A DNA stretch of 64,000 nucleotides from Patescibacteria group bacterium (GTDB lineage: Bacteria > Patescibacteriota > Minisyncoccia > Phycocordibacterales > Phycocordibacteraceae): positions 15,792 to 79,791 of the forward strand of contig JBBTSO010000004.1 of assembly GCA_038064695.1 (NCBI GenBank). Direction: 5' to 3'. The notes beneath the pieces were generated by a model. It did not search any database, was not told where the DNA came from, and was given only the letters and a program-made list of their open reading frames with translations. The stretch's first letter is position 1; each line of letters begins with the position of its first letter. Both the position numbers and the translations under genes were made by a program. Shown here in pieces: positions 3,895 through 60,791 of the stretch.

Positions 3895-4374
3895 ATGAAA
3901 AAAATACTTTCTGTGCTTCCCCACGCTATTGCGCTTTTCGGCGCGGTGATATTTCTTGATTCGCTTCGCTACAAGTTTACGAATGCACCTGAAACACAGG
4001 TGATTTTTGGAAAATTGGATGTGTGGGCGGCGACGTGGGGTGCGAGCGGTTTGTTTTCACACACAGGGCTTTTTAGTCAGTACGTCATTGGAAGCGCGGA
4101 GTTAGTTGCTTCCATTTTCTTGCTCATTGGCATTACGAAAATGTTTCGCCGATTTCAAGTGGTTGGCGCGTTGATTGCGTTTTGTGTGATGACGGGAGCA
4201 GTTTTCTTTCACCTTTTTACTCCACTCGGTATTGACCCGAATATGGATGGGGGAGGGTTGTTTGTGGCGGCAGTGGTCTTGTGGGTTGGTTCAATTGTCT
4301 TACTTGTCATTCGTCGTGCGGATTTGAAGGAGATAGTGAGACTAAAATTTGCGTACTTTTTTCCGAAGAAGTAA
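3895..4374 (+). CDS. DoxX-family membrane protein
   Basis: Four TM helices and DoxX-like topology. It is followed by an intrinsic terminator. Confidence 0.55.
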   Translation: MKKILSVLPHAIALFGAVIFLDSLRYKFTNAPETQVIFGKLDVWAATWGASGLFSHTGLFSQYVIGSAELVASIFLLIGITKMFRRFQVVGALIAFCVMTGAVFFHLFTPLGIDPNMDGGGLFVAAVVLWVGSIVLLVIRRADLKEIVRLKFAYFFPKK

Positions 4375-4377
4375 ACA

Positions 4378-4407
4378 CAAAACCCCGCTCACGCGGGGTT
4401 TTGTGTT
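4378..4407 (+). terminator. rho-independent terminator (CCCCGCtcaCGCGGGG + T-tract)
   Basis: GC stem followed by TTTTGTGTT immediately after the DoxX stop. Confidence 0.7.
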
Positions 4408-4540
4408 GGTAGTGGCGCCGAAGTGTACCCTTCGGCATCCTACAAAAATATAGTCACTGACGTTCGTTATTTTTGTATGCCAAGCATACGTCCGGCACTC
4501 GCTCAACCAAGAAAGTGCACCGCTCTTTCTTGATCTTCGC

Positions 4541-4563
4541 TCGTTTGGTTGTGGAGATGGTGG
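4541..4563. repeat. direct repeat of the tmRNA 3' terminal ~20 nt, about 180 nt downstream of ssrA
   Basis: ttggttgtggagatggtgggaag here versus ttggtgtggagatgctgggaatcg at 4739-4762. Confidence 0.5.
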
Positions 4564-4706
4564 GAAGTGTCTTCGCTTCGCTCGCACGCATCGGTCACAA
4601 GTCGCCCTTTGGGCGCTCGCGACCCCGCCTCGCATTGCCTTCGGCAACATGCTCCGGCCTTCGATTCCCAGCAGAAGCAAAGCAGTTTGCTTCTTCCGTT
4701 TCCACA

Positions 4707-4740
4707 CCAAAACAAAAACCGCCGAAGAGGCGGTTTGTTT
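4707..4740 (-). terminator. intrinsic terminator immediately 3' of the tmRNA
   Basis: Minus strand reads CCGCCTCTTCGGCGG followed by TTTTTGTTTT. Confidence 0.7.
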
Positions 4741-5140
4741 TGGTGTGGAGATGCTGGGAATCGAACCCAGATGCAATAAGAGAGTTTTAAGCGAGTCTAC
4801 AAAACGTAGTTCACTTTAGGTGTTTAAACAGTCGGTATAAAAAGTAAACAAAAGCACCGCCTGCCGAGCTCTTAGTTTTAGTGAAGTGGGTGAGCAGTAC
4901 ACTTCCTTAGCCTGAAGATATTACACCAGCGTTTCTTTATCAGACATCAAGAAACGTGATGTCGTCGGGTCAGCTTATGCAGCGACGCGAACGAACGCAA
5001 AGTCAGCCTTTGAAAACAAAGACTGGCCTGCGAAAAACGTGGGTTTTGCACGTTAGTGCGCTCGAGGTTTTAGGTGTTCTCCAGCATTCACCGTTTTGCA
5101 CGCAGAAAACAAAACTTATTGTCGAAGCCGATCATCCCCC
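4741..5140 (-). ncRNA. ssrA: transfer-messenger RNA (tmRNA, SsrA), about 400 nt
   Basis: Minus-strand 5' end GGGGGAUGAUCGGCUUCGACAAU matches the tmRNA 5' consensus (GGGG..G....GG.UUCGAC). The 3' end CUGGGUUCGAUUCCCAG-CAUCUCC-A is a T-arm plus an acceptor strand complementary to 5' GGGGAUG. An internal frame reads GCU GAC UUU GCG UUC GUU CGC GUC GCU GCA UAA, a tag ending in AA then stop. It is adjacent to smpB and followed by a terminator. Confidence 0.75.
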
Positions 5141-5142
5141 GA

Positions 5143-5190
5143 AAAAACGGGAAGGGAATTCCTGTTTTTTCGGGGAGTCACCAGCTAGTA
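5143..5190. promoter_or_regulatory. 14-bp inverted-repeat hairpin between smpB and the tmRNA 5' end
   Basis: ccccgaaaaaacgg ... cctgttttttcgggg. It could be the smpB terminator and/or a tmRNA 5' processing signal. Confidence 0.4.
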
Positions 5191-5214: not shown

Positions 5215-5667
5215 TCAATCGTGAGATTGATTTTTAAGATGCAACTGGATCTGTCGTTTGCTGTCGCGTTCTTTCAACGCCTCTCGCTTATCATACTTCT
5301 TTTTATGGCGCGCGACCGCTACTTCCAGCTTTATCTTCCTACCTCTATTATACCATTTTATAGGTACTATTGTCAAACCCTTCTGTCCCTCGTGCTCAGC
5401 AAGCGTCACCAACTCTTTTTTGTTTAAGAGTAACCGGCGCGTGCGGTCTGCAGTATAAGAGGCAGGGGTGTTCTCTACTTGATAGGGAGAAATGGTGGCG
5501 CCCAAGAGAAATGCTTCGCCACCACGAATGACGACGCGCGCGCCTTCTAAACTTCCCATTCCACTTCGCACCGCTTTCACTTCAAATCCTAGGAGTTCTG
5601 CTCCCGCTTCAAACGTTTCAAGTAATTCGTAATTCAAGCGCGCCTTTTTGTTTTCAATAAATGCCAT
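5215..5667 (-). CDS. smpB: SsrA-binding protein SmpB
   Basis: 150 aa; MAFIENKKARLNYELLETFEAGAELLGFEVKAVRSG is the SmpB hallmark. Confidence 0.85.
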   Translation of the reverse strand: MAFIENKKARLNYELLETFEAGAELLGFEVKAVRSGMGSLEGARVVIRGGEAFLLGATISPYQVENTPASYTADRTRRLLLNKKELVTLAEHEGQKGLTIVPIKWYNRGRKIKLEVAVARHKKKYDKREALKERDSKRQIQLHLKNQSHD

Positions 5668-5687: not shown

Positions 5688-7670
5688 ATGGACACAGACT
5701 CAAAAACACAAACCGTGAAAGAAAAAACAGAGAAGAAGGAAAAAGGGAAGAAAGGAAAGAAAAAACCAACACTTCCCAAACAGCTTGAACAGCTCGCGCA
5801 GTCTTCTCGTGAGGGGGGTTCGTGGGGAAACTTTACCTCCATCCTCATTACCATCCTCGTTCTCACGATGCTCTACTCTTTTGTCTCAAATGGTGGGAAA
5901 GAAGTAGAGCAAGTGTCGCTCTCCGCGCTTGTGTCTGACATTCGTGCGAGCGAAGTGACAAACATTGTGATTGCGGGAGATAAACTCACCATTACCTACA
6001 AAGACGAAACTGAAAAAGAGGGGAAAAAAGAGTACAATACCGCGCTCTCTGAGACCTTAGTGAACTACGGCTTAACCGCGGAAGAACTCGCCACCGTTGC
6101 CATTGAAGTTAAAAACGAAACTGGTTTTCGCTACTGGTTCTTCGCGCTCGCTCCTATTGCGGTGCCGCTCCTCTTAATCCTCGTGTTTGTGTGGTACCTC
6201 TCTCGCCAAGTGCGTGGCGCGGGTATGCAGGCGTTCACCTTCGGGCAGTCAAAAGCGCGCCTCACGGATCCCAAAGACAAAAATTCGCGCATTACGTTTT
6301 CTGACGTTGCGGGCGCAAAAGAGGCGAAGGAAGAGCTCACGGAAATCGTAGACTTTTTAAAGAACCCAAAAAAATTCTTGGACATCGGCGCGCGTATCCC
6401 GAAAGGAGTGTTGTTGATGGGAGCACCGGGCACCGGGAAGACACTTCTTGGTCGCGCTGTTGCGGGCGAGGCGGGCGTTCCGTTCTTCTCTATCTCAGGA
6501 TCTGAGTTTGTTGAAATGTTTGTGGGAGTTGGCGCCAGCCGTGTGCGCGATTTATTCCAAATGGCAAAACGCGCGGCGCCCGCCATTATTTTTGTTGATG
6601 AAATTGACGCCGTGGGGCGCGTGCGAGGTACGGGGGTTGGTGGGGGAAACGATGAGCGTGAACAAACCTTAAACCAAATTTTGGTTGAAATGGACGGGTT
6701 TGAACCCTCAGAGAAAGTCATTGTTATGGCGGCAACAAACCGTCCTGACGTCTTAGACCCCGCGCTTCTTCGTCCCGGCCGCTTTGATCGTCGCGTCACC
6801 ATTGACCTTCCTGACCGTGAGGGACGAGAGGAAATTCTCAAAATTCATGCGCGTAAAAAACCGCTCGCTGAAGATGTGAATTTAAAAATAGTTGCAGAAC
6901 GCACCCCAGGATTTTCAGGCGCTGATCTTCAGAGCTTGATGAACGAAGGCGCTATTCTTGCGGCGCGTGAGGATAGAAAGAAGGTAGCGCAGTTTGACTT
7001 GGTGCGCTCTATTGAAAAGGTAATGCTTGGTCCTGAGCGAAAAACACACATTCTTTCCCGCAAAGAGAAAGAAATAACCGCGTACCACGAAGCGGGACAC
7101 GCGCTGGTGGCGAGTGTGTTGCCGTACGCGGACCCCGTGCACAAAATTTCTATTATTTCTCGTGGACGTGCGGCCGGCTACACGCTCAAGCTTCCACTGG
7201 ATGATAAGAAAATGCAGTCGCGCAATGAATTTTTGGACGACATCGCGGTTAGTTTAGGTGGGTACATTGCTGAAGAAATGGTCTTTGGTGACTTAACGAC
7301 GGGTCCGTCAAACGACCTTCAGGTATTGACCGCGCTCGCGCGCGATATGGTTACCAAGTACGGTATGAGTAGCGTGATGGGGCCGGTGGCGCTTGAAGGG
7401 GAAGGTGGGCGTGCCATGTTTGGGCGCGGTATGAATGAGAAAGAGTATTCTCCTGAAGTGTCCGCAAAAATTGATGCCGAAGTGAAAAAAATTATTGATG
7501 ACGCGTATCGCAAAGCCACTGATCTTATTGTGAAACATCGCCCGGTCCTTGATGCTATTGCGAAAAAATTGGTGGTTGAAGAGAATATTGAACGTGATGA
7601 GTTTGAAAAACTCTTAATTCTTCACGGTATTGAGCCAAAAAAGAAGCAGGACATTGAACACCAGCCCTAA
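5688..7670 (+). CDS. ftsH: ATP-dependent zinc metalloprotease FtsH
   Basis: N-terminal TM helices, AAA module (GAPGTGKT Walker A, DEIDA Walker B), HEAGHA zinc motif. I moved the start to the ATG at 5688, which sits directly behind a TATAAT box. Confidence 0.9.
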
Positions 7671-8928: not shown

Positions 8929-9005
8929 GGGCGCGTAGCTCAGTTGGTTAGAGCACAGAGCTTATACCTCTGCGGTCCCTGGTTCGAGTCCAGGCGCGCC
9001 CACCA
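8929..9005 (+). tRNA. tRNA-Ile (anticodon UAU), CCA encoded
   Basis: Cloverleaf GGGCGCG / GCTC-AGTTGGTTA-GAGC / CAGAG-CTTATAC-CTCTG / CCTGG-TTCGAGT-CCAGG / CGCGCCC-A-CCA. All four stems are fully Watson-Crick. Confidence 0.85.
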
Positions 9006-9047
9006 GCCCAATCGATATTCCGAGCGATCGCATGAAGCAAAGACGTA

Positions 9048-9097
9048 GTCTTTATACCTCTGCGGTCCCAGGGTATCGAGTCCAAGGGGGTGGACCA
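9048..9097 (+). pseudogene. tRNA-like 3' fragment duplicating the tRNA-Ile anticodon/variable region
   Basis: CTTTATACCTCTGCGGTCCC is 19/20 identical to tRNA-Ile positions 32-50. It then diverges (AGGGTATCGAGTCCAAGGGGGTGGACCA) with a degenerate T-arm. Confidence 0.35.
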
Positions 9098-9151
9098 ACA
9101 GTGGTTTTGGTTAGGGTTTTCTGCTATGCTCCATGCACACAATAAAAATAT

Positions 9152-15103: not shown

Positions 15104-16443
15104 TCTGTTTCCCACGGAAGTGCTCCTCCGGGAATGTATGTTTTGAGCGCGGGCTCTCCCTGCTCCCACGTTTCAAGAATTGGGTCGGCAAATATCCATT
15201 CAAGTTCCACTTCCTTTTTCGTGGGGAAGCGCGTGTGGTCGCTATGCCATGAATCCAAAAACAGTTGCGCGTACTCGTCAGCGTACTGAATTTTTGGTTC
15301 CTCATCTTTATATTCTTCAATAGTGGTGATGAGCGACCCTTTTTTAGTGTAGATACGAGGAACAGGTTCAAGCTCTATATGGAGTGAGTCGGTGTGATCG
15401 CAGTCAAACTCAATGACGACGTCTTTTTTAATCTGACTCATGCGTTTTCCTCCGCGGAGGCGGACCGGAACTCCTTTGTGTGGCGCGTGCGTTAAGGCAA
15501 AGCGAATATCAAAGTACGTTTCAACGCGTGAGTCTTGAGCAACCCCTGGGATGCTCTGGTATGTTTCGTACTGCGCACGGGTGGTGTTTTCTATAATGTG
15601 ACCGTCAGTGAGTTTGGGAAGGGATGCGATAAACGATTCGCGAGCGGAACAAACGGCTCGCGGCGTGAAGTCGGGAATTTCCATAAGCGAGAGCGCTAAC
15701 ATTTCTAGGTGATGATTTTGACCCACGTCGCGGAGTGCTCCCACGCCGTCATAAAATGCGCCACGTTTTTCAACACCCATTTCTTCAAAAAGAGTAACCG
15801 TCACCTCTTTAATGCGCTCAGTGAGACGGAGCGTTTCGTATAAGTGGTGATCGCGCCTAGCGTGTAAAAGTTTTTGAAGGACGGGTTTTGCCAGGTAGTG
15901 GTCAATGCGGAAAATTTCACTCTCGTCAAAATATTCGTCTAAAAATGCATTTAGCGCGCGTGCCGTTTCTTCGTTTTTCCCAAACGGTTTTTCAATAAGA
16001 ATATTGCGGTGGGTGCTCCCTTTCGGCGCCACCGACGCAATATGGGGGACTAAGGTGCGTACCAACTCAGGCGGTACGGCGAGGTAAAAGCTTTTGAGTG
16101 ACAAACTGCCACGAAGCATGTCGTTGTGTTCAAAACGTTTTTTGAGTTCTGTAAAAGAGTCAACATCATGAAATTCGCCCCGGTGATAGTGGAAGAGTTC
16201 CAAAAATCCTTTCGAAGAGCGCACGGTACAGTCCGACTGAACACGTTTGAGGTTAATAAATACATACTCACGGAAGCTTTCGGTTGTGTGCGGGTGTCTC
16301 CCAAAACCAATGACTGAAAATGATTCAGGAATTTTTTTCCTCGTGTAGAGAAAGTAGAGTGAAGGAATTATTTTTCGTGCAAATAAATCTCCCGTCGCAC
16401 CGAATACGGTGAACGTGATAGGAGTGCCAGCAAGAGTGTTCAC
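15100..16443 (-). CDS. zwf: glucose-6-phosphate 1-dehydrogenase
   Basis: N-terminal FGATGDLA NADP motif and the RIDHYLAK signature (RIDHYLGK consensus). Confidence 0.85.
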   Translation of the reverse strand: MNTLAGTPITFTVFGATGDLFARKIIPSLYFLYTRKKIPESFSVIGFGRHPHTTESFREYVFINLKRVQSDCTVRSSKGFLELFHYHRGEFHDVDSFTELKKRFEHNDMLRGSLSLKSFYLAVPPELVRTLVPHIASVAPKGSTHRNILIEKPFGKNEETARALNAFLDEYFDESEIFRIDHYLAKPVLQKLLHARRDHHLYETLRLTERIKEVTVTLFEEMGVEKRGAFYDGVGALRDVGQNHHLEMLALSLMEIPDFTPRAVCSARESFIASLPKLTDGHIIENTTRAQYETYQSIPGVAQDSRVETYFDIRFALTHAPHKGVPVRLRGGKRMSQIKKDVVIEFDCDHTDSLHIELEPVPRIYTKKGSLITTIEEYKDEEPKIQYADEYAQLFLDSWHSDHTRFPTKKEVELEWIFADPILETWEQGEPALKTYIPGGALPWETD

Positions 16444-35184: not shown

Positions 35185-35255
35185 AGCGGGGTAGAGGAGA
35201 GGTACCTCGGGAGGCTCATAACCTCCAGACCCTGGTTCGATTCCAGGCCCCGCAA
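35185..35255 (+). tRNA. tRNA(CAU) - Met / initiator-like, A1-A72 mismatch, no encoded CCA
   Basis: AGCGGGG-TA-GAGG-AGAGGTA-CCTC-G-GGAGG-CTCATAA-CCTCC-AGAC-CCTGG-TTCGATT-CCAGG-CCCCGCA-A. Anticodon CAU. The 1-72 pair is mismatched, a feature usually seen in bacterial initiator tRNAs. Confidence 0.7.
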
Positions 35256-35260
35256 CAAAC

Positions 35261-35288
35261 AAAAAAAGCACCGCAAGGTGCTTTTTTG
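35261..35288 (+). terminator. intrinsic terminator after tRNA(CAU)
   Basis: aaaaaaagcacc-gcaa-ggtgcttttttg. Confidence 0.7.
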
Positions 35289-35434
35289 ATTGTAGACGGG
35301 GCAGCAAGACAAAAGTTTGTCTTGCGTCTAGAATCGAACGGGAGGGGGTCGGGGAACGGGAGTTCCCCGTATAGGAAGGCAGGACGAAGTCCGTTGGAAA
35401 ACCGTTGGTTTCCAAAGAGTGAGATAGCAAAGCG

Positions 35435-35453
35435 TCCAGGCCCCGCAACAAAA
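35435..35453 (+). repeat. direct repeat of the tRNA(CAU) 3' end, 180 nt downstream of it and followed by a second terminator
   Basis: tccaggccccgcaacaaaa versus tccaggccccgcaacaaac at 35241-35259. Terminator aaaaaacgccgcgaggcgttttttctg at 35455-35487. Confidence 0.6.
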
Positions 35454-51994: not shown

Positions 51995-54901
51995 TCAGAA
52001 TTTCTTAATCACTATGTCGACTAAGCGATTGAGATACTTGTGGAAATCCGCGACCTTTAACTTTCCTTTGTATTCTTTAAGCACAAGCTCCTGAACAATC
52101 CGCTTCACTTCTTTGAGGAATTCGTCACGCTTTGAGGATTCCTGCCATCCCTCATCGAGAACATCTTGAAGCCGGCTGGTCATATCTTTGATGAAATCAC
52201 GAATGACATCCTTATCTCCTTCAACGAATTCTTCTGAGATGACATAGAGGCCGTACTCTTTCAGTGAATAACCAAGCTCTTTTGCCTCGTCTCCCTTTTT
52301 CTTTATGTCTTCAAGAAGCTCCTGGTATCGCTTGATGCGCTCCGATAGATCGATCTGATTTTGTTCAAACTCCTTACGAATAGCGGAGAGCCGCTCACTG
52401 AACTTTTTGTACGCAGGGTTAGTGTCGACGTTTATGGAGATTTCTTGCTTAAGCATCTTCTCCAGGTTAAGCGCCTTCTCTTCATCATCCATCTTATTGA
52501 GCCGCTCCATGACATAAAGGTCATTCACATTGAGCTCCCTAAAGTTCTTAGTGATACCTTCGTAGTCCACGCGCTGCTGAATGAGAAGCTTTACCTTCTC
52601 ACCATACTCAGCAAGAAGCTCAGCGTCGGTCATCTTAGCTCCGTATTCCTTGTCGAATGCAATATAAACGCTCGTAAGCCATTCAAATGCCCGAATATGT
52701 GTCTTCAAAAATGGGTCAGGAGAGAGAATCTCAAACAAGAGCTTGAGACGGGCATACTTCTCACGAAAGAACTTCTGCTTATCGGTGTTCTCCGCAAAGA
52801 TCTTAAGACAGCGGCGCAGGTTTTCAATTGATGGATCCTCAATACTGACTCCTCCAAACACATCCATAGTCTCTTCAAGCACTTCGATAAACTCTTCCTT
52901 GAGCTTGTCGATGTTGATCATTGCAGAATCAACAACGCTCTCATCAAAGTTAAGCGCCTTGTGGAGACTCTTCGTGATGCCGTAGTAGTCGATAACCTTG
53001 CCGGCCCCCTTGTTTGGGTACACACGGTTCGTGCGTGCAATGGCCTGTAGCAAATTGTGATCCCAGAGCGGCTTATCAAGGTACATGACCTGTTCAACTG
53101 GGGCGTCAAAGCCGGTCAAAAGCATGTCACAAACCAGTAGGAACTTGAGAGGACTGTTTGGATCCTTAAACTCATTGATCAACTTCTCCCGCTTCGCTTT
53201 AGTAGTGTTGTACTTCTGGAGATCCTCAGCGCTTGTATTTGGGTCGCCTGGGGAATAAATGACGGCCGACCACTCCTTGGGCACAAGTTCGTCTAGCAAT
53301 TCTTTGTATCTCGCTGTCGCCTCACGGTCATAGCAGACAATCTGTGCTTTGAAACCAGCGGGTTCAACGTACAGTTTGTAGTGCTCGACAATATCTTGTG
53401 CAACAGCACGCATACGTCTATCGAGCTTTACGATCGCTTCTTTCTTCCCATATTTCTTTGCAACCTGGTCTTTCTCTTTGTCCGAAAGTCCCTGGGTTAG
53501 TTCTTCAAATTGCTTATCTATTTTCTCTTCATCAATAAAGAACTTTGAGAGTCGTGCTTCGTAAGTAACCGGGAGCGTGGCCCCATCCTCAACGGCTTGC
53601 TGAATCGAGTAATAGTCTAAGTAGCGCTCTCCCTCCTCCCCGAAGTTGCGATGGGTATTAAGTGTAGCTTTATCGATAGGCGTACCGGTAAAACCAAAGA
53701 AGAAAGCGTTCTTCAGAGAACTGCGGAGATTGATTGCAGAAACACCTTCGTTGTCTCTATGAGCCTCGTCTGAAAGAACGATAATGTTCTCGTCGAGATT
53801 CTCTATTTCATTTCCAAGCTCAGAGAATTTCTGAATAGTGGATATAAAGATGCCACGCTCAGGTGATTGTATTTTCTTCTCGAGCTCTTTGCGCGAATCA
53901 ACACGGACGACATTCTTACCTCCGCAGTTTACAAAAGTCTCATAGATCTGATCATCAAGGTCAATGCGGTCAACCAGAATAAATATCTTCGGATTCTTAA
54001 GTGCTTTATCAAAACGTAGCTTCCACGCAGTAAAGAACATCGTTAAGGACTTACCGGACCCCTGGGTGTGCCAAATAAGACCGCGCTTCTGGCTGCCTTC
54101 TGCCACTCGCTCGACAATCTTGTTTGTCGCTCGAAGTTGCTGATACCGTGCAATTTTCTTTACAGTGCGTTCCTTCTCCTTTTCGAAAAGAATAAAGTTC
54201 CTCACAATATCCAGTAAGCGTTCTTTTGAGAGTAGCGCCGTGAGAGTCATTTCCAATTCGCCACCGGCCAGCTTTTCAAGCTCCTCGTCACGCCATCGCA
54301 AGAAATACTGTGCAGGGGCATACGTAGCCCCGTACACAGTCTGTAGACCGTCAGTAGCGATATTGAAACAGTTCGGCCAGAACAGTTTGAATGCATTGCG
54401 CTCATAGCGCTTTATCTGCCCAACAGCGTTTGTATAGTTCACATTGCTTGCGGCAGTGGGACTCTTAGCCTCTACATCCACCACCGGGAGACCATTTAGG
54501 AAAACCATTACATCCGGGCGAATGTTCTCGGAATTTCCCTCAAAATAGAATTGATTGGTTACAACAAACCGATTATTGTCAGGTGTTTCAAAGTCGACGA
54601 CATAGTAGTCCCGCATTTTGCCGGTCTGAGGATCCTTCAAGTTGACGCCATCTCGAAGCATTTGAAGAAATGCTTCGTTGTTATCTATCTTCTTCACTTC
54701 GCGAACGACTGATACAGCTTCGTCTTCACCTATTCCGTTAATTTTCTTCACTGCTTCAAGAAGAAGCGGAGTGATTATGTATTCATTCTCAAACTCGCGG
54801 AGCTTGGTGAACTCCTGTGGCTTGATGTATTCGAAACTAAGCTTCTCTTGGAGAAACTTAATGACGTGATTTTCTACTGTATATTGTTCGTTGAATTTCA
54901 T
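51995..54901 (-). CDS. hsdR: type I restriction enzyme R subunit
   Basis: 968 aa. SF2 translocase motifs (TQGSGKS Walker A, VLSDEAHR DEAH box), N-terminal nuclease region, C-terminal helical domain. Confidence 0.9.
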   Translation of the reverse strand: MKFNEQYTVENHVIKFLQEKLSFEYIKPQEFTKLREFENEYIITPLLLEAVKKINGIGEDEAVSVVREVKKIDNNEAFLQMLRDGVNLKDPQTGKMRDYYVVDFETPDNNRFVVTNQFYFEGNSENIRPDVMVFLNGLPVVDVEAKSPTAASNVNYTNAVGQIKRYERNAFKLFWPNCFNIATDGLQTVYGATYAPAQYFLRWRDEELEKLAGGELEMTLTALLSKERLLDIVRNFILFEKEKERTVKKIARYQQLRATNKIVERVAEGSQKRGLIWHTQGSGKSLTMFFTAWKLRFDKALKNPKIFILVDRIDLDDQIYETFVNCGGKNVVRVDSRKELEKKIQSPERGIFISTIQKFSELGNEIENLDENIIVLSDEAHRDNEGVSAINLRSSLKNAFFFGFTGTPIDKATLNTHRNFGEEGERYLDYYSIQQAVEDGATLPVTYEARLSKFFIDEEKIDKQFEELTQGLSDKEKDQVAKKYGKKEAIVKLDRRMRAVAQDIVEHYKLYVEPAGFKAQIVCYDREATARYKELLDELVPKEWSAVIYSPGDPNTSAEDLQKYNTTKAKREKLINEFKDPNSPLKFLLVCDMLLTGFDAPVEQVMYLDKPLWDHNLLQAIARTNRVYPNKGAGKVIDYYGITKSLHKALNFDESVVDSAMINIDKLKEEFIEVLEETMDVFGGVSIEDPSIENLRRCLKIFAENTDKQKFFREKYARLKLLFEILSPDPFLKTHIRAFEWLTSVYIAFDKEYGAKMTDAELLAEYGEKVKLLIQQRVDYEGITKNFRELNVNDLYVMERLNKMDDEEKALNLEKMLKQEISINVDTNPAYKKFSERLSAIRKEFEQNQIDLSERIKRYQELLEDIKKKGDEAKELGYSLKEYGLYVISEEFVEGDKDVIRDFIKDMTSRLQDVLDEGWQESSKRDEFLKEVKRIVQELVLKEYKGKLKVADFHKYLNRLVDIVIKKF

Positions 54902-56061
54902 GATTCTAGATCTATTTGCAGATTCGTAAGTGCCGCTTGGTACTCCTGTGCCCTTGTAATTATTGCCGTCGCAGTAGATTCCGCTTCATCGTTTCCAACA
55001 CCTACGCGAATCAGTTCATTGCTTAGGTCTACCTGATTGACATTTGCGAAGCCAAGCACCGCTCTAACAGAAAGATTTTCTTTGATAGAATCTTGCTCTG
55101 AGGCAATTAAGAGTTTAGAGGCTTGCGATACTCCGTGAAGCAAGAAAGAAACATCTTGTTTACTGATGACTTTTTTAATTCGGACCTTTAACTCCTCCTC
55201 ATTTACCTCTTCAGAAACGTTGGTACCACTGAATATCTGACGATTAATATCTTCGTTGCTAGCCACCTCTCCCAGGCCGAGACGATCGCCACTTACAAAA
55301 CCGATGTTTGTGACATTCATATTTGTCTGGGTCAGAAGAAAGTTAATCATGAGGTACCCCTGGTCTCGGTAATTAATATCTTTCAGCCGCTCATACTGTG
55401 CTTTATCGGCCTGTTCTAGCTTAGTTAAAAATTCTGCCCATTCTTTGTCGCGAATTTTGTCGAGATGGTACATCAAGAATTTCTTAAACTCTTTTATATC
55501 CTTCAGCTTTTCCTCTTTAAGGTTGTTTTTGTTTATCAGGAAGCACGCTGAACGTTTGCCAAGCCGGGCAAAGCCGAGATCTTTCAGAAAGACCGGGTAC
55601 AGTCTGTTTGGTTGTGTTTCAAAATCTGGTATTGCAAGAGAGCGAACCAATCTACCTAGAGACGCACTATATACAAAGAGTGTGTAGTAGCCGGATGTAG
55701 TTGCTAAAGCAAAGAGGTCTTTTTCGCGCACTTCACTCTCTGCAAGGAGTTTGTTCAGAAGACCAAGCGCCTTCTGTCGTTCAGCGCGATCCGCGAAATA
55801 TTCTTTTTGCTCTTTCGCAAGTTTATCAAGATCTTCCTTCGTTTGCGTCGCCGTTTCAGCAACTGAATCAATTTTTGCGTCTGATAGATCCTGGTTTTTA
55901 TCCTCCTGGTACTTCTGATAAAAGCCATGCGATATGTCAACGACAAAGTAAAGAAGAAAAAGTACCGGGCTTTTCAATATCACTACAGCAAAAGCCCCGA
56001 GAGCTTTGAGGCCCAGGAGTTTATATTCAAGCAGCCGTTCTATTTCTTTCTTGGTAATCAT
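54898..56061 (-). CDS. uncharacterised membrane-anchored coiled-coil protein embedded between hsdS and hsdR
   Basis: 4-nt overlaps at both ends (56058-56061, 54898-54901). N-terminal hydrophobic segment LGLKALGAFAVVILKSPVLFLLYFVV. No Walker motifs and no recognisable nuclease or methylase motifs. Confidence 0.5.
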   Translation of the reverse strand: MITKKEIERLLEYKLLGLKALGAFAVVILKSPVLFLLYFVVDISHGFYQKYQEDKNQDLSDAKIDSVAETATQTKEDLDKLAKEQKEYFADRAERQKALGLLNKLLAESEVREKDLFALATTSGYYTLFVYSASLGRLVRSLAIPDFETQPNRLYPVFLKDLGFARLGKRSACFLINKNNLKEEKLKDIKEFKKFLMYHLDKIRDKEWAEFLTKLEQADKAQYERLKDINYRDQGYLMINFLLTQTNMNVTNIGFVSGDRLGLGEVASNEDINRQIFSGTNVSEEVNEEELKVRIKKVISKQDVSFLLHGVSQASKLLIASEQDSIKENLSVRAVLGFANVNQVDLSNELIRVGVGNDEAESTATAIITRAQEYQAALTNLQIDLES

Positions 56062-57239
56062 GGTGTTTTTACTCTCACCGATCCTGTCAGCAGGTCTTGC
56101 ATGAGACCCTTCTTAAGTAGAAAAAGCTTGCCCTTCAATTTTTGATTGATGGAGATTTTTTCATCGACCGAAGTGAGAATGTTGGCAATTTCTTTTTGTT
56201 CACTGACAGAAGGGCGAGATATGTACATCTCACGAATAACAGTTTGGGATATGTTTGGTTGTGCAGCGCCCCGGGCTTTAGAAATTAGTTCTTCAGTCTT
56301 ATTGGAAAGAAAATAATACACAAACTCTGGATTGAAGTGTTCGCTAGGCAAAACTCCACAAACCGCCTGGTTGGTTGAAGCATTAATCGATAAAAATCCA
56401 ACTTGCCCCGCCGTTGCCCCATACATTGCAACAAGAACAGTACTTTTGGGGAATATTTTTGCAGATGAGTTTTTAAGGCCAGCATTTGTAATATATTGAG
56501 TGGCATTATAAACACGTCCTTGTCGTACCTCACCGCTCGTTAACCAAGGGATAGTGCCGCCCTCGTAGTATTCTTTTTTACTCTTGAGTGGAGTGCCACC
56601 GGAAGAGGTGTCGAGGACATCACCAAGCTTTTTGACGTCCCACGTACTTGGTACTTCTCCGATTTCTGTTCTCTTAAATTTCGTATGTCCGATACCACGC
56701 GTAAATAGCTGCTGCATTAGCCCGCCCTTGAGTTTCTCGGTCGCAGTAATGATCTCATCAGTTTTCTGAATCTCTTCATCAACCACACTCAAGATCTCCG
56801 CGATTTTCTTTTGTTCAGAGTGTGGAGGAACAAGAACCTCCATGTTTTGATATTGAGAAATGTAATATCGTTTATGACTTCCCGTCGGAAAGTTGATTGA
56901 CTTCATTTTCTCGTAGACAAACTGAAGGTCGACATCGGCACCCCTTTCCTTGAGAATTTTTATTGCCGACGACTTAACCTTAAACGGAAAATCTGCGAAC
57001 TTGCTGTCGGTTGTAAAATCATCAAAAATTATTGCCGGCAAATTTGTATAAATACCGTCTTTCTCATCCGTATAACCGAGAACAAAAGACTTGTTTGCAG
57101 TAAGAACTGGCGTGCCGGCTTTTATATATCGATTGTTCTCGACTATGTATCTGTCGGGACGTTCATAACCCAGCAGATCCTTAATCTGTCTTACTTGCCA
57201 CCCTTTCGGAATATTCTTTTTTGGCGCAGTTTTTGTCAT
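56058..57239 (-). CDS. hsdS: type I restriction-modification specificity subunit
   Basis: Two target-recognition domains separated and flanked by conserved coiled-coil repeats; 393 aa. Confidence 0.85.
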   Translation of the reverse strand: MTKTAPKKNIPKGWQVRQIKDLLGYERPDRYIVENNRYIKAGTPVLTANKSFVLGYTDEKDGIYTNLPAIIFDDFTTDSKFADFPFKVKSSAIKILKERGADVDLQFVYEKMKSINFPTGSHKRYYISQYQNMEVLVPPHSEQKKIAEILSVVDEEIQKTDEIITATEKLKGGLMQQLFTRGIGHTKFKRTEIGEVPSTWDVKKLGDVLDTSSGGTPLKSKKEYYEGGTIPWLTSGEVRQGRVYNATQYITNAGLKNSSAKIFPKSTVLVAMYGATAGQVGFLSINASTNQAVCGVLPSEHFNPEFVYYFLSNKTEELISKARGAAQPNISQTVIREMYISRPSVSEQKEIANILTSVDEKISINQKLKGKLFLLKKGLMQDLLTGSVRVKTP

Positions 57240-59041
57240 TTTCTAAATTCGATCTCAGTAAAAAGCGCAGCGATATTTTTCTTGGTCGTATCGCTCAAAG
57301 TCACTGACCCAGCACGCACCTTCTGGAGAAACTTGCGCGCGAGCAATACCTTGTCGGGACGCGACTTGAGACCTTTGATGTACTCGGAGTTTGAGGATGT
57401 GTATGCGAGCTTTGTATCCTCAAGAACATATTCCTTGAAATCTTCAACACTGAAGATGTCAACAATAGTTGTTCCGTCCTTTTTGGTGACCACTTTTATA
57501 GCTTCTGGAAGCACTTTCCAATCCTTCAACCTCTTCTCGCCATCCTTCTTACCTTGGTCGTTGTCATAGAGGTAACGAACGTTGGCACCCCAGCCCTCAA
57601 GAACCGCACCGACGAGGCCCATGTTCGGTGCACCGCCGCCATTGATGAAGTTCGTTTTGAGAGTCTTTTTCTCAAGCTCCTTGAAAGCTCGGAGATAGAA
57701 CACGTCTTCCGGCCCTTCGACTACAACGTTATCCTTTTGATCAAGGTTTGTAATTGAGTCGTTAATGCCGAGACCAATAGCGGTGAGAATAGGCGTAAGT
57801 GTTTCTTTGTCTGCAGTCGGATGAGCGTGTATTTTGCCGAGTATCTTTGTGCCTTTCGCTGTCTTTTCGATCAATCGAACATTTTCAAGGTTATCCTCGG
57901 TAAGGAGATACGGGGAGTGCGTCGAGAAGACAACAGGGTTATCGTTCGTGTGCTCCGTGAGGACCTGTAACAGGTCCTTCTGGGCTTTGGCATGCAGATA
58001 GAGGCCCGGCTCGTCGATTAGGATGACGTTCGGCTTGTCTTCCTGAAGCCGCGCGACGATTTTTACATAGAATGATAGGTACCACTGCTGACCCTTGCTC
58101 CGTTGCGAGGGGTAGTAGAGCTTATTACTCTCGACGATCCAGAAGTTAATGTCCGTACCGTCTTTTTTGACCTCCAATTTTATTTTGTCCTGCGTCCAAT
58201 ATTTCTCAAATTTGTCAGAAAATTCAACGTTCACGGTCTTCTCGTGATTTGCCTGCTCCTGCTGGTTCGTTGATGCCATCTTTGCGATGGAAAAGTTGCT
58301 GACCTGTTCAAGATCTTTCGCCCAGTCATTTGTTGCAAGTGAAGCAATGGGAATTGATTTCGGGAATTCGTCGTCGAAGGACGAGAAGAGAACGAAGTAA
58401 GGAAGTTGAGTCTCAACGAATTTGCTGATGAAAGCAGTTACCACACTCTCTCGCGCATAAAAGTCGTCAGCGGCCTTGCCAATCTTCTCGACCTCACTTG
58501 CCACATCTGTTAACCCCGGATTCTGGTTCTTAAAAGTCTCCGCTTCGGCTTTATAGTCGCTGAGTTTTTGCTTCTCGAAGCGTGGGAATTTTGCGTCACT
58601 GCCAGCAGTCTTAATGAGAGAGTCGGCCTTCTTCATCGAATCGAGAATCTGTTTTTTTGATGTGCTGTATATATTTGGCAGACTAAGCAGTTTTCGTGAT
58701 TCATCATCAAACGTGTATGTATCCGCACCAAATTTCTTCGTGAGGGTAATGAGTGTATCCTTGGAGACTGTTGTTCCGGCCGCTGCCTCGTCAAGGAGAT
58801 CATTTATTTCCTCTTTCGTGAGAGTAAAGGAGATCGAGACTTCAGGAATCCCGTCTCCTTCGATTGGTTTTGCCTCTCCTCTGATTGCTCGGCTTTGATG
58901 GAAGTCTTCCAGTGCTTCGAGCACAGAAGTTTTCCCAGACTCGTTTTTGCCAGCAAGAATGGTTAGTTTTTCACTGAAATAACAATCACCGGAGTCCACG
59001 ATGGATTTGTAGTTTTTGATTCTGAATTTCGTAAGTTTCAT
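57236..59041 (-). CDS. OLD-family ATP-dependent endonuclease (ABC-type ATPase + Toprim) embedded between hsdM and hsdS
   Basis: N-terminal Walker A ILAGKNESGKTSVLEAL; Walker B/D-loop LIDEPGLYLH; C-terminal Toprim-like VVVEGPEDVFYLRAF and YLYDNDQGK (DxD). ATG at 59041 lies 4 nt after the hsdM stop; the longer track ORF extends into hsdM. Confidence 0.65.
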   Translation of the reverse strand: MKLTKFRIKNYKSIVDSGDCYFSEKLTILAGKNESGKTSVLEALEDFHQSRAIRGEAKPIEGDGIPEVSISFTLTKEEINDLLDEAAAGTTVSKDTLITLTKKFGADTYTFDDESRKLLSLPNIYSTSKKQILDSMKKADSLIKTAGSDAKFPRFEKQKLSDYKAEAETFKNQNPGLTDVASEVEKIGKAADDFYARESVVTAFISKFVETQLPYFVLFSSFDDEFPKSIPIASLATNDWAKDLEQVSNFSIAKMASTNQQEQANHEKTVNVEFSDKFEKYWTQDKIKLEVKKDGTDINFWIVESNKLYYPSQRSKGQQWYLSFYVKIVARLQEDKPNVILIDEPGLYLHAKAQKDLLQVLTEHTNDNPVVFSTHSPYLLTEDNLENVRLIEKTAKGTKILGKIHAHPTADKETLTPILTAIGLGINDSITNLDQKDNVVVEGPEDVFYLRAFKELEKKTLKTNFINGGGAPNMGLVGAVLEGWGANVRYLYDNDQGKKDGEKRLKDWKVLPEAIKVVTKKDGTTIVDIFSVEDFKEYVLEDTKLAYTSSNSEYIKGLKSRPDKVLLARKFLQKVRAGSVTLSDTTKKNIAALFTEIEFRK

Positions 59042-59045
59042 AATT

Positions 59046-60791
59046 TCAATAATTAAGCTCTTTGAGATATCCTTCGACTTTTTTATCAAGCTCCGTACGT
59101 TCCTTCTCAAGAACAGCGAGCTCCTTGCGCACAGCAGAGACGTCAACCTCTTCCTCCTTGTCACCATTTTCAATATAGCGACGCACATTAAGATTGAACT
59201 CATTTGCCTCTATCTCTTTGAGATCAACGACCCGGGTGTAGTTATCAATATCCTTAAAGCCGTCATACGCTTTGACGATCTTCTGAATGTCCTGGTAGCG
59301 AAGAGAGTTCTGATTCTTACCCTCAGAAAAGTCCTTTTCACCATCGACAATAAGCACCTTACCTTTGCGAGCTTCTGGCTTGTTTTTGTTGAAGATAAGA
59401 ATCGCTGCTGGAATACTTGTGCCGTAGAAAAGCTTTGATGGGAGTGCGATCACCGCCTCAATGAGATCGTTCTTGAGTATTTGCTCGCGAATACGACCTT
59501 CAGACCCACCTCTAAACAGCACCCCGTGTGGGAGCACGATACCAGCGCGCCCATTCGAATTCATCGATTTAATGATGTGAAGTACGAATGCATAATCAGC
59601 GTTCTTGTTCGGCGGCAATTCATATCCGTCGATACGGCCATATTTGTCCGACTTGAACATCTCATACTCCCAGTCGTTGATTGAGTACGGAGGGTTTGCG
59701 ACACAGATATCAAATGACTTGAGACTGCCATTCGGATTCAGAAACTGTGGGTTAGCCAAAGTATCTCCACGTAGAATGTCGGCGCTGTCGAGACCATGAA
59801 GAAACATGTTGATCTTCGCAATTGCGTATGTACCAATGTTGATCTCTTGGCCGTAGAGATAGAGAGTGCGTGCAACTTGTTCGCCCTCTTTTTCTTTCAA
59901 ATGATGGAACGCTTCAAGAAGGAACCCGCCTGATCCGACCGTAGGGTCGTAGATGTGATCCTTTTTGTGCGGCTTGAGTATTTGTATGATGACGCGCTCT
60001 ACCTCACGCGGAGTATAAAACTCACCTCCTTTCTTCCCAGCGTCAGCCGCGAATTGCTTGATGAGGTATTCGTATGCGTCACCAAGAACGTCGGAGTTAA
60101 TGTAAGTGTCGCCAAAGTTATACTGCGAGAAGTGGTTTATGAGACGCTGTGTCGTTTCGTTCGGGAATCGGTCCTTGTTTGCAAAATCGAGATCGTCAAA
60201 AATTCTGTCGAGTTTCGGGCTGTTTGCATTTGCGAGCTTTTCAAAAATCTCATTGAGTTTCTTGCCGATATTCTCAGCCTTCTCTTCAACGACGGCCCAA
60301 CGGCACTCCTTTGGTACTTGAAAGCGGTGATTGTAGTCTGCCCGCGCGATTGTTTCGTCTTTGAACTCATCCATCACCCGCGCGTACTCCTCATCCCACA
60401 CGTCGCTGATGCGTTTAAAAAAGAGGAGGCCGAAGATGTACTTTTTATAGTCGGAGCTATCAATTTTGCCGCGCAGAATGTCGGCGCTCTTCCAGAGAAA
60501 TTGTTCAAGCTGCGGAAGAGTAAGCTTGCTCCCCATCTTATCGACGATCGTCTGGATGTCTTGGGGGCGGTATTTACGATCCCCACGTTTACCAGAACGC
60601 ATAGGCACTAAAATGCCCTCCTTTTCCCAGTTACGGAGAGTGTCCGGATGGATATTAAAAATCTCTGCCACTTGGCCGATAGAGAGGAGGTCGGGCTTAT
60701 CCTTGAGCTTTGCTTGGATGTCTTTTCTCATAATCTTCATTAATATCCTATCTGACTGCAAATACAAAGTCAAGTGTTCATAGGTCTTCAT
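59046..60791 (-). CDS. hsdM: type I RM N6-adenine DNA methyltransferase M subunit with an N-terminal MerR/excisionase-type HTH extension
   Basis: HsdM_N helix (LPQLEQFLWKSADILRG), SAM motif, catalytic NPPY (ANPPYS). The first ~85 aa (SIGQVAEIFNIHPDTLRNWEKEGILVP) form an HTH_17/MerR-like domain in the same frame. Confidence 0.85.
   Translation of the reverse strand: MKTYEHLTLYLQSDRILMKIMRKDIQAKLKDKPDLLSIGQVAEIFNIHPDTLRNWEKEGILVPMRSGKRGDRKYRPQDIQTIVDKMGSKLTLPQLEQFLWKSADILRGKIDSSDYKKYIFGLLFFKRISDVWDEEYARVMDEFKDETIARADYNHRFQVPKECRWAVVEEKAENIGKKLNEIFEKLANANSPKLDRIFDDLDFANKDRFPNETTQRLINHFSQYNFGDTYINSDVLGDAYEYLIKQFAADAGKKGGEFYTPREVERVIIQILKPHKKDHIYDPTVGSGGFLLEAFHHLKEKEGEQVARTLYLYGQEINIGTYAIAKINMFLHGLDSADILRGDTLANPQFLNPNGSLKSFDICVANPPYSINDWEYEMFKSDKYGRIDGYELPPNKNADYAFVLHIIKSMNSNGRAGIVLPHGVLFRGGSEGRIREQILKNDLIEAVIALPSKLFYGTSIPAAILIFNKNKPEARKGKVLIVDGEKDFSEGKNQNSLRYQDIQKIVKAYDGFKDIDNYTRVVDLKEIEANEFNLNVRRYIENGDKEEEVDVSAVRKELAVLEKERTELDKKVEGYLKELNY

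Follow-up and report, generated by a model that had tools for sequence, protein, structure and literature searches.

The 64,000-nucleotide (nt) window examined here (positions 15,792 to 79,791 of contig JBBTSO010000004.1, assembly GCA_038064695.1, from a Patescibacteria group bacterium) carries on its minus strand the gene smpB, a transfer-messenger RNA (tmRNA) gene (ssrA) and, immediately behind ssrA, a short segment in which the 3' end of that gene is copied in both orientations. This segment, originally taken for a scar, belongs to a so far undescribed family whose members are structured, match their host gene and are located at the 3' ends of tRNA and tmRNA genes of Patescibacteria. Our preferred interpretation, held with moderate confidence, is that it represents a miniature non-coding integrative element carrying a structured RNA. 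Related loci and contigs that were compared with the window are designated by L-numbers (L001 etc.).

The tmRNA gene had been proposed from the sequence of the window, and a search with the Rfam model RF00023 bears this out. Infernal reports a one-piece tmRNA at 76.3 bits (E = 7e-28, model positions 1-374), where the gathering score of the model is 47 bits. ARAGORN, which had been suggested as an alternative check, reports eight tRNAs in the window but not this tmRNA. We discounted that negative because the Rfam match, the conservation of the tag frame and the anatomy are concordant. The 5' end reads GGGGAUGAUCGGCUUCGAC and starts at 5139, as expected, but a fifth G that the original prediction had included, at 5140, lies outside the 7-base-pair acceptor stem. 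This stem is formed by GGGGAUG (5139-5133) and CAUCUCC (4753-4747), with G3·U70 as its third pair. Both the acceptor complementarity and the T-arm, CUGGG-UUCGAUU-CCCAG, can be read directly from the sequence. The discriminator A is followed in the genome by CAC rather than CCA, so the CCA of this tmRNA is added post-transcriptionally, in line with the earlier remark that it is not encoded.

The tag frame opens at a conserved GCA after ..GUGCAAA and reads GCA AAA ... GCU GCA UAA, with the ending that had been predicted, to give a peptide of 24 amino acids (AKPTFFAGQSLFSKADFAFVRVAA). Resume codon, frame and TAA stop coincide in five aligned relatives (L037, L038, L039, L040 and L001), and the tags of the six aligned ssrA genes are 20-25 amino acids long, all with a terminal alanine. 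The regions of pseudoknots PK1-PK4 are covered by the Rfam alignment with several non-canonical pairs. The other defining features of a standard one-piece tmRNA are found, and the long tag, the lack of an encoded CCA and the ARAGORN miss are normal variation in the Candidate Phyla Radiation. We regard it as settled that this is a genuine tmRNA gene of a Patescibacteria bacterium of the Paceibacteria type. The gene is routine in itself; it closes an annotation gap and shows that Infernal finds Candidate Phyla Radiation tmRNAs that ARAGORN can miss.

The neighboring gene smpB, located directly upstream as had been noted, is recognized by Pfam, and the order smpB-ssrA is retained in most related loci examined. 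The label 'doxX' that had been given to the gene on the downstream side did not hold up as well, since its only match is to DoxX_2 at E = 7.7e-4, under the Pfam cut-off. The smpB coding region contains a sigma-70-type promoter match, about 200 nt ahead of the tmRNA start, and this candidate promoter, judging from its sequence, may drive ssrA, which would be expressed together with, or just after, smpB. A leader hairpin between the two genes includes the first nucleotides of the tmRNA, and the same pairing of leader and tmRNA 5' end is predicted in L037-L040, L001 and L010. With this hairpin on one side and the arms described below on the other, the tmRNA can be held at its two ends by hairpins that flank it.

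The repetition of the ssrA 3' end farther downstream, the feature that first drew attention to the locus, is also real. Two direct repeats, DR1 at the end of ssrA (4737-4760) and DR2 (4543-4566), agree at 21 of 24 positions and are spaced 194 nt apart (repeat family D1), and the pattern CATCTCCACANCNAAAC occurs at three sites compared with 0.14 expected from shuffled sequences. An antisense T-loop had been reported between the repeats. It is present as an exact plus-strand match to TTCGATTCCCAGCA at 4660-4673 (two sites compared with 0.04 expected from shuffles), but the inverted copy of the ssrA 3' end is longer than had been noted. It spans 4660-4713, is interrupted by a 22-nt hairpin, and resumes at 4697-4713 with the complement of the acceptor strand and trailer.

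Read on the ssrA strand, the order of parts is DR1, terminator, anti-trailer/anti-acceptor arm, hairpin h1, anti-T arm, a core of two hairpins, a linker hairpin and DR2 (Table 1). The unit is about 175-195 nt long, and the element in the window occupies 4543-4736. Its terminator is the intrinsic terminator that had been predicted behind ssrA. DR1, terminator and both arms fold together into a three-way hairpin (-67.6 kcal/mol, z = -10.1 compared with shuffles) that is predicted to be very stable and tRNA-shaped. DR2 lacks most of the T-loop in the window copy. The 175-nt interior holds only overlapping, mechanically called open reading frames (ORFs) that cross ssrA, without evidence of coding.

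Table 1. Positions of the ssrA and tRNA-Met features in the window
Feature	Position	Strand	Details
smpB, 150 amino acids	5215-5667	-	PF01668, 146.9 bits
Candidate ssrA promoter inside smpB coding sequence	5347-5376	-	TTGACA-18-TATAAT, TG before second hexamer; 12/12 hexamer positions
Leader hairpin between smpB and ssrA	5126-5186	-	Inverted repeat I1; first ~14 nt of the tmRNA form its descending arm
tmRNA (ssrA)	4743-5139	-	RF00023; acceptor 3' strand 4747-4753, discriminator A 4746, T-arm 4754-4770
Tag reading frame GCA...GCA UAA, peptide AKPTFFAGQSLFSKADFAFVRVAA	4974-5048	-	Frame conserved among relatives
DR1: T-loop, T-stem 3' strand, acceptor 3' strand and trailer of functional ssrA	4737-4765	-	Copied downstream in both orientations
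Bidirectional intrinsic terminator hairpin, tip of long palindrome	4716-4736	.	Terminator search; inverted repeats I2, I7
Anti-trailer/anti-acceptor arm GUUUUGGUGUGGAAACG	4697-4713	-	Complementary to 4737-4753; plus-strand pattern match with 2 mismatches
Hairpin h1, 9-base-pair stem, CUGC loop	4673-4694	-	Same place in 11 other copies, stems differ
Anti-T arm UGCUGGGAAUCGAA	4660-4673	-	Exact complement of ssrA T-loop/T-stem 3' strand 4752-4765, 14/14
Conserved structured core, two hairpins	4589-4663	-	Covariance model R1, 71.8 bits, E = 1e-15
First core hairpin, irregular	4627-4658	-	3-base-pair closing helix, GAG/AGG purine-purine internal loop, variable stem
Second core hairpin, h3	4593-4624	-	Base GGUCGCGAG/CUUGUGACC, two G·U pairs, bulged A, variable tip
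Short GC-rich linker hairpin with GCGAAGC	4567-4592	-	Specific to window copy
DR2, decayed direct copy of ssrA 3' end UUCCCACCAUCUCCACAACCAAAC	4543-4566	-	Repeat family D1, 21/24; read as displaced original 3' end
Second element, behind tRNA-Met(cat) (35185-35256)	35257-35449	+	Same architecture; core ~95 nt, different
tRNA-Met element, terminator	35261-35287	+	
tRNA-Met element, anti-acceptor arm	35295-35302	+	
tRNA-Met element, h1	35304-35325	+	
tRNA-Met element, anti-T arm	35327-35339	+	TCTAGAATCGAAC
tRNA-Met element, DR2 TCCAGGCCCCGCAAC	35435-35449	+	Second terminator beyond

The exact SmpB protein of the window is also encoded by GCA_964357335.1 contigs and by assemblies from Hainich groundwater (H41), and its relatives occur in metagenome-assembled genomes labelled Paceibacteria, Kaiserbacteria or Patescibacteria. 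In five near-identical contigs the spacer from ssrA to doxX is 100% identical and the element is present in all. The same unit is found behind ssrA in eight other Paceibacteria contigs (L013, L014, L009, L010, L002, L037, L043 and L051), among them the closest relative found (L037, SmpB 81% identical), and behind tRNA-Ile(tat) in L015. Alignment of homologous loci, by which the original prediction had proposed to see whether the segment is variable, gives a patchy distribution with the element at nine of about 45 related ssrA loci. L038-L040, whose SmpB proteins are 69-76% identical, have plain terminators behind ssrA and no element there, and L039 carries a core behind tRNA-Ile. This recurrence of the interval as a structured unit behind ssrA and tRNA genes of related genomes disposes of the suggestion that it is a plain partial ssrA duplication.

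Other host genes carry members with the same architecture. A second element in the window stands behind tRNA-Met(cat), and its core does not match covariance model R1 (described below) even with filters off, indicating a different subtype. A related subtype at tRNA-Gly in L023 has the anti-T arm and DR2 and lacks the anti-acceptor arm and h1. L070 contains a tandem array of element units whose host gene lies outside the examined DNA; its repeats end in ...CCCTCTCCG, which from its sequence is probably a tRNA-Ser-type 3' end. Tandem units are also found in L001 and L005, and the boundaries of the duplications vary in all three contigs. The family occupies the 3' ends of ssrA, tRNA-Ile(UAU), tRNA-Met and probably tRNA-Ser. 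Across copies, h1 keeps its CUGC loop and its position while the sequence of its stem varies, and a search for h1-type hairpins in about 0.5 Mb gave matches essentially confined to these elements. As a control, the upstream side of tRNA genes showed no repeat of the 3' end and few lone inverted matches.

Strong evidence for covariation comes from the core. RNAalifold applied to eight cores predicts 21 base pairs, 15 of them with compensatory changes. Model R1, built from the same eight sequences and searched over 54 sources (459 kb), gives 15 hits at E < 0.01, only one of which is in the 64-kb window, and all hits outside L070 are directly downstream of ssrA or tRNA-Ile(tat). In the resulting 15-sequence alignment, 92.8% of cells are paired compared with 68.6% in shuffles, 16 of the 21 pairs change on both sides, and pairing falls to 32-44% when the partners are slid by 1-3 columns as a control. 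One G·U pair at the base of h3 persists in 13 of the 15 sequences, and seven sequences have G·U at a second position. Because these conserved pairs would be C·A mismatches on the opposite strand, the folded strand is the ssrA-sense strand. The pattern of substitutions indicates that the core is a folded single strand under selection.

Known RNA classes did not account for this structure. Rfam 15 E-value scans of window positions 4340-4800 and of L015 positions 5870-6400 returned only tRNA/tmRNA and chance-level hits. A plus-strand tRNA-like gene was rejected, as the 5' strand of the T-stem is missing and the core G·U pairs would be C·A. A degenerate second tmRNA, signal recognition particle RNA, 6S RNA, RNase P RNA, group II domain 5 and known small ribozymes were set aside for their unfit anatomy and lack of an Rfam hit. 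A loose regular expression for h3 proved too unspecific and the covariance model was used instead.

Additional segments accompany some cores. Extra inserts of 110-170 nt separate the first core hairpin from h3 in L015 (6085-6195) and L051 (5668-5795). These inserts, carried at the same junction by two independent elements, have long terminal inverted repeats and a flanking duplication of 7-8 nt (GGGCAGG; GGCGAGCC), and are either insertions that resemble miniature inverted-repeat transposable elements or an optional long hairpin. In L046 (260-411) and L039 (700-870), the h3-type hairpin occurs alone in tandem (GGGUCGCG...GUGAC[U/G]AC) after a full core.

The covariation bears directly on the possibility that the locus is neutral debris, in which both ends of a larger island (the attL side and the attR side) would remain without function after an internal deletion, while template switching at the palindrome of the terminator would have generated the inverted copy and preserved it free of mismatches. 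Such an origin would suit the decaying DR2, the absence of genes and of a G·U bias in the arms, and the fact that tiny inter-repeat remnants with gaps of about 4-40 nt are common at tRNA-Ile genes (L066, L042 and window positions 9006-9098). However, 12 copies share one contiguous arrangement in which h1 always occupies the same junction, and deletions that occurred independently would not produce this. Compensatory change at 16 of 21 core pairs and a near-invariant G·U need selection on a folded single strand, and R1 finds the core only behind ssrA or tRNA-Ile. Debris is strongly disfavored because the core covaries, and we consider it very improbable. The earlier observation was correct and its interpretation, an att-type scar of a lost element, half-right: a second copy does stand in the ancestral flank, as shown next, but the interval is a complete, conserved and covarying unit.

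The direction of the insertion can be read from a relative without the element. In L012, ssrA runs directly into ...CTCCACAAAATTAAGGAACGTAGTGACTATAATTTTGTAGG, and L037 has exactly that flank after DR2, with ...CTCCACAAAATTAAGGARCGTAGYGACTAWAATTTTGTAGG as the ancestral flank common to L012 and the second copy of L037. The flank of DR1 in L037 differs from L012 and is the element-borne terminator. The window has the same downstream motif at 4476-4374. Because element-less L012 carries the DR2-type flank, the element has been inserted and provides ssrA with a replacement 3' end, and because the ancestral flank follows the second copy, DR2 behaves like an original 3' end that has been displaced. 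In all copies the repeat has its left edge inside the T-loop, whereas its right edge varies from 3 to more than 40 nt past the discriminator.

The motif at 4374-4476 (minus strand), which is found directly after ssrA in L012 and after DR2 in L037, has its own characteristics. It consists of a -10-like box (TATATT/TATAAT/TAAAAT), GUAGG, a hairpin, CCACUA and a strong terminator (4374-4407), and possibly encodes a small RNA under a promoter of its own.

Core sequences do not follow the relatedness of their hosts, which, with the patchy distribution and the tandem units, points to movement. The window core is most similar to that of L070, which has a different host gene (83% identical), and is 67% identical to that of L037, which shares the host gene and is the closest relative found. 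The ssrA core of L010 and the tRNA-Ile core of L015 are of the same subtype, and both core subtypes are found at ssrA and at tRNA-Ile.

These relationships help to assess the main rival explanation, a resident trailer RNA, which we judge unlikely. Here, h1 and the core would be a small RNA co-transcribed with tRNA-Ile or tmRNA, the arms would pair with the 3' end of the gene as a processing or stability stem (e.g. for RNase III) that mirrors the leader hairpin, and DR2 and the tandem units would result from local slippage between repeats. L001 has no terminator between tRNA-Ile and h1, which leaves co-transcription as the sole option there. The pairing of leader and tmRNA 5' end in the window and its relatives also fits, and the perfect match to a promoter within smpB implies that such leader hairpins are read through. 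A sense-strand RNA is suggested by the covarying core with its conserved G·U, the tandem duplications of L001, L005 and L070 have variable boundaries, and no recombinase is nearby. However, a resident RNA is difficult to reconcile with the patchy distribution among ssrA loci and the plain terminators of L038-L040, with an ancestral flank that follows DR2 rather than DR1, and with a good terminator ahead of the element in the window. Likewise, homologous cores are found at different host genes with their arms re-matched, and core similarity is discordant with host relatedness.

The state of DR2 also speaks to whether the element could be an intron-like insertion in the T-loop that is removed from a read-through transcript, leaving DR2 as the functional 3' end. 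The predicted fold of such a transcript pairs the tmRNA 5' GGGGAUG with DR2 and locks DR1 in the three-way hairpin, and the order of an anti-3'-exon followed by an anti-5'-exon segment resembles the internal guide sequence of group I introns as it is generally known. DR2, however, is degenerate. The window copy lacks most of the T-loop, and those of L009, L014 and L051 are badly decayed or truncated. With a length of about 75-110 nt, the core falls short of the size of group I and group II introns, and it matches no Rfam intron or ribozyme family; in place of a P3-P9 core in an interrupted gene, the window has a core of about 75 nt with two hairpins behind an uninterrupted ssrA that is complete without splicing. 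We find this explanation scarcely credible.

The arms of each copy are matched to the gene that hosts it. T-loop UUCAAUU is paired with an arm AAUUGAA in L009, L002 and L051, UUCGCAA with UUGCGAA in L010, and CUCAUUA with AAUGAG in L037, and the acceptor strand CGUCUCC of L051 is paired with GGAGACG. Summed over 12 copies, the arms form 318 Watson-Crick pairs with DR1 compared with 197 with DR2, which is decayed or truncated to a variable degree across copies.

A conserved scaffold with variable, host-matched segments around a conserved hairpin might also point to an element directed by base pairing. The arms would then be guides that lead a trans-encoded recombinase to the tRNA or tmRNA 3' end or, in a variant, would fold with the element's own target copy into a hairpin that mimics the double-stranded target site. 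The h1 hairpin and the core would serve as a protein-binding scaffold, and exchange of the arms would retarget the element among ssrA, tRNA-Ile, tRNA-Met and tRNA-Ser. Consistent with this are the presence of the same scaffold at four different host genes, the tandem arrays, and the conserved base, conserved bulged A and highly variable tip of h3, which recall the general anatomy of attC sites. However, no associated protein was identified, neither resemblance to the attC R-box nor an Rfam match was found, and several tRNA-Ile-linked copies lack the anti-T arm. Moreover, re-matching of the arms could follow insertion through palindrome correction instead of being the cause of targeting. Direction by base pairing is therefore quite improbable in our view.

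Integrases acting on tRNA genes have worked in this lineage, as judged from classic integrase att scars. The region 8929-9098 (plus strand) of the window contains a tRNA-Ile gene with the unusual anticodon UAU (tat) and an encoded CCA. About 40 nt downstream of this tRNA, at approximately 9046-9098, is a foreign tRNA-Ile 3' half that starts in the anticodon loop, and tandem halves starting at the same place are found in L066, L041 and L042. A putative 4.8-kb island at the tRNA-Ile gene of L009 was rejected because its distant repeat is within a coding region and was judged a chance match. In L042, L044 and L066, an inverted copy of the acceptor end lies about 100 nt behind ssrA and is followed by a small GIY-YIG-type ORF (MYYVYILKS...YIG...), an arrangement that may represent a different ssrA-linked mobile unit.

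We therefore return to the miniature integrative element. In the scheme that we favor, it entered ssrA between the T-loop and the 3' end, like integrative elements that target tRNA genes (tDNA), an insertion that the comparison of flanks shows. It brought the present ssrA 3' end together with the terminator (4716-4765), and pushed the original 3' end downstream to become DR2, now decaying. The element presumably is, or was, mobilized in trans, for instance by a tRNA-gene-specific integrase of this lineage. Its core would be made as RNA by read-through from the ssrA or tRNA gene, and either selection for the hairpin or quasi-palindrome correction might keep its arms matched.

Several observations weigh against this scheme. 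A canonical terminator is located between ssrA and the element and no promoter was recognized inside, so the core is only putatively expressed as RNA. The arms contain G·U and A·C combinations in nearly equal numbers (7 and 8, respectively). Given the lack of a G·U excess, the arms may be kept complementary at the DNA level and not as RNA, which may occur by quasi-palindrome correction while selection protects the tRNA arm. Among the copies linked to tRNA-Ile, those in L009, L046, L005, L001 and L039 are without the anti-T arm, some of these are without DR2, and several consist of a trailer palindrome plus core; the 'integrative' features are thus not universal in the family. At the ssrA site of L015, DR1 and the terminator are followed by no more than the start of the anti-acceptor arm, which looks like a deletion rather than an empty site. 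Neither an excised form nor presence/absence at the strain level was seen, and all five near-identical contigs have the element. Neither the surroundings of any copy nor the annotated parts of the window showed an integrase, a transposase or a reverse transcriptase. Finally, antisense arms and RNA-type covariation would have no explanation under a tyrosine-integrase model.

The ORFs downstream of 12 copies, judged by their first residues and gene order and not by a Pfam scan, include none that is recombinase-like and several that are housekeeping-like (IF3, L20, MetK, RecG). Neighboring genes in the window were checked in part through precomputed Pfam hits, and the parts covered contain housekeeping genes and a type I restriction-modification system. 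Five scans of a viral collection with core or h1 patterns gave chance hits in phage coding genes, with the exception of L070, whose neighbors are cellular genes, and they provided no evidence for a phage origin. The element had no blastn match among GenBank phages or PLSDB plasmids.

Among the closest known systems are genomic islands in tRNA and tmRNA genes. The Islander paper describes islands as making the split tDNA whole again while a displaced fragment stays behind (PMC4383910), and ssrA-specific islands are known from Dehalococcoides (PMC3146451). As in such islands, the target is the 3' part of an ssrA or tRNA gene, the element itself carries the sequence that completes the gene, and its far end is recognizable by a displaced 3' fragment in direct orientation. 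Further shared traits are a block of identity that starts in the T-loop and tandem arrays with target fragments between their units. The window accordingly has an intact ssrA next to a displaced 3' fragment, and the gene in element-less L012 is joined to the DR2-type flank of L037. An integrase, which tDNA islands carry, is found neither in the 175-nt interior nor, as far as seen, among the neighboring genes. In contrast to islands, the element is only about 175-195 nt long and has no genes, and its inverted target copies and covarying RNA-type structure fall outside the island paradigm.

Other mobile systems can also be compared, among them cis-mobilizable elements (CIMEs) and further non-autonomous integrative remnants, for which a review is available (PMC5704250). 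CIMEs are kilobase-sized, decayed integrative and conjugative elements or integrative and mobilizable elements. They share with the present element the att-type repeats at both ends, the absence of a recombinase of their own, the possibility of tandem accretion and a presumed recombinase in trans. We know of no conserved folded RNA or target-complementary arms described for CIMEs, whereas the present element has both, is far smaller, and is mobilized by presumption only. The hairpins of integron attC sites and of the CTX phage attP are alike by analogy only: structure is conserved over sequence, with a hairpin base, an extrahelical base and a variable tip, and an inverted, target-like pair can fold into a duplex mimic of the target. 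CTX and integron cassettes likewise encode no recombinase of their own. However, the present element targets a tRNA or tmRNA gene, lacks an R-box (GTTRRRY) or dif-like sequence, and has GGUCGCG/UGUGACC at the base of h3 in place of RYYYAAC/GTTRRRY boxes, without an integron context.

A conserved scaffold with short, variable, target-complementary segments is also characteristic of IS110 bridge RNAs, the exon-binding sites of group II introns and the retroviral primer-binding site, the last of which is alike in that its complementarity covers the acceptor 3' strand and the T-arm. Bridge RNAs are encoded beside a DEDD/serine recombinase gene and have two large programmable internal loops. The present element has no such ORF or reverse-transcriptase gene adjacent, its internal loops are small, conserved and not programmable, and the complementarity of its arms reaches into the genomic trailer without a complement of CCA.

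The element explains the partial ssrA and tRNA 3' ends and the 'antisense T-loops' encountered in these genomes, and R1 provides a model with which such elements can be searched. It is compact, covarying, outside the Rfam families and, in Paceibacteria, associated with the 3' ends of tRNA and tmRNA genes. As a mobile unit, it would rank among the smallest integrative elements described, and would raise the question of how an element without a protein gains target-matched sequences. As a trailer RNA, it would add a new class to the small RNAs of organisms with minimal genomes, one that is linked to tRNA genes.

Two further observations concern the window and its close relatives. The type I restriction-modification system mentioned above is located at 51995-60791 on the minus strand and comprises HsdR, HsdS, HsdM and an AAA_15/AAA_21 ATPase, with an unannotated gene of 387 amino acids in between. 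Contig L029 (Hain_H41_01um_R1_6787) stops inside ssrA at approximately window position 4825, just before the T-arm, and this may be an assembly break due to the downstream repeats and palindrome.

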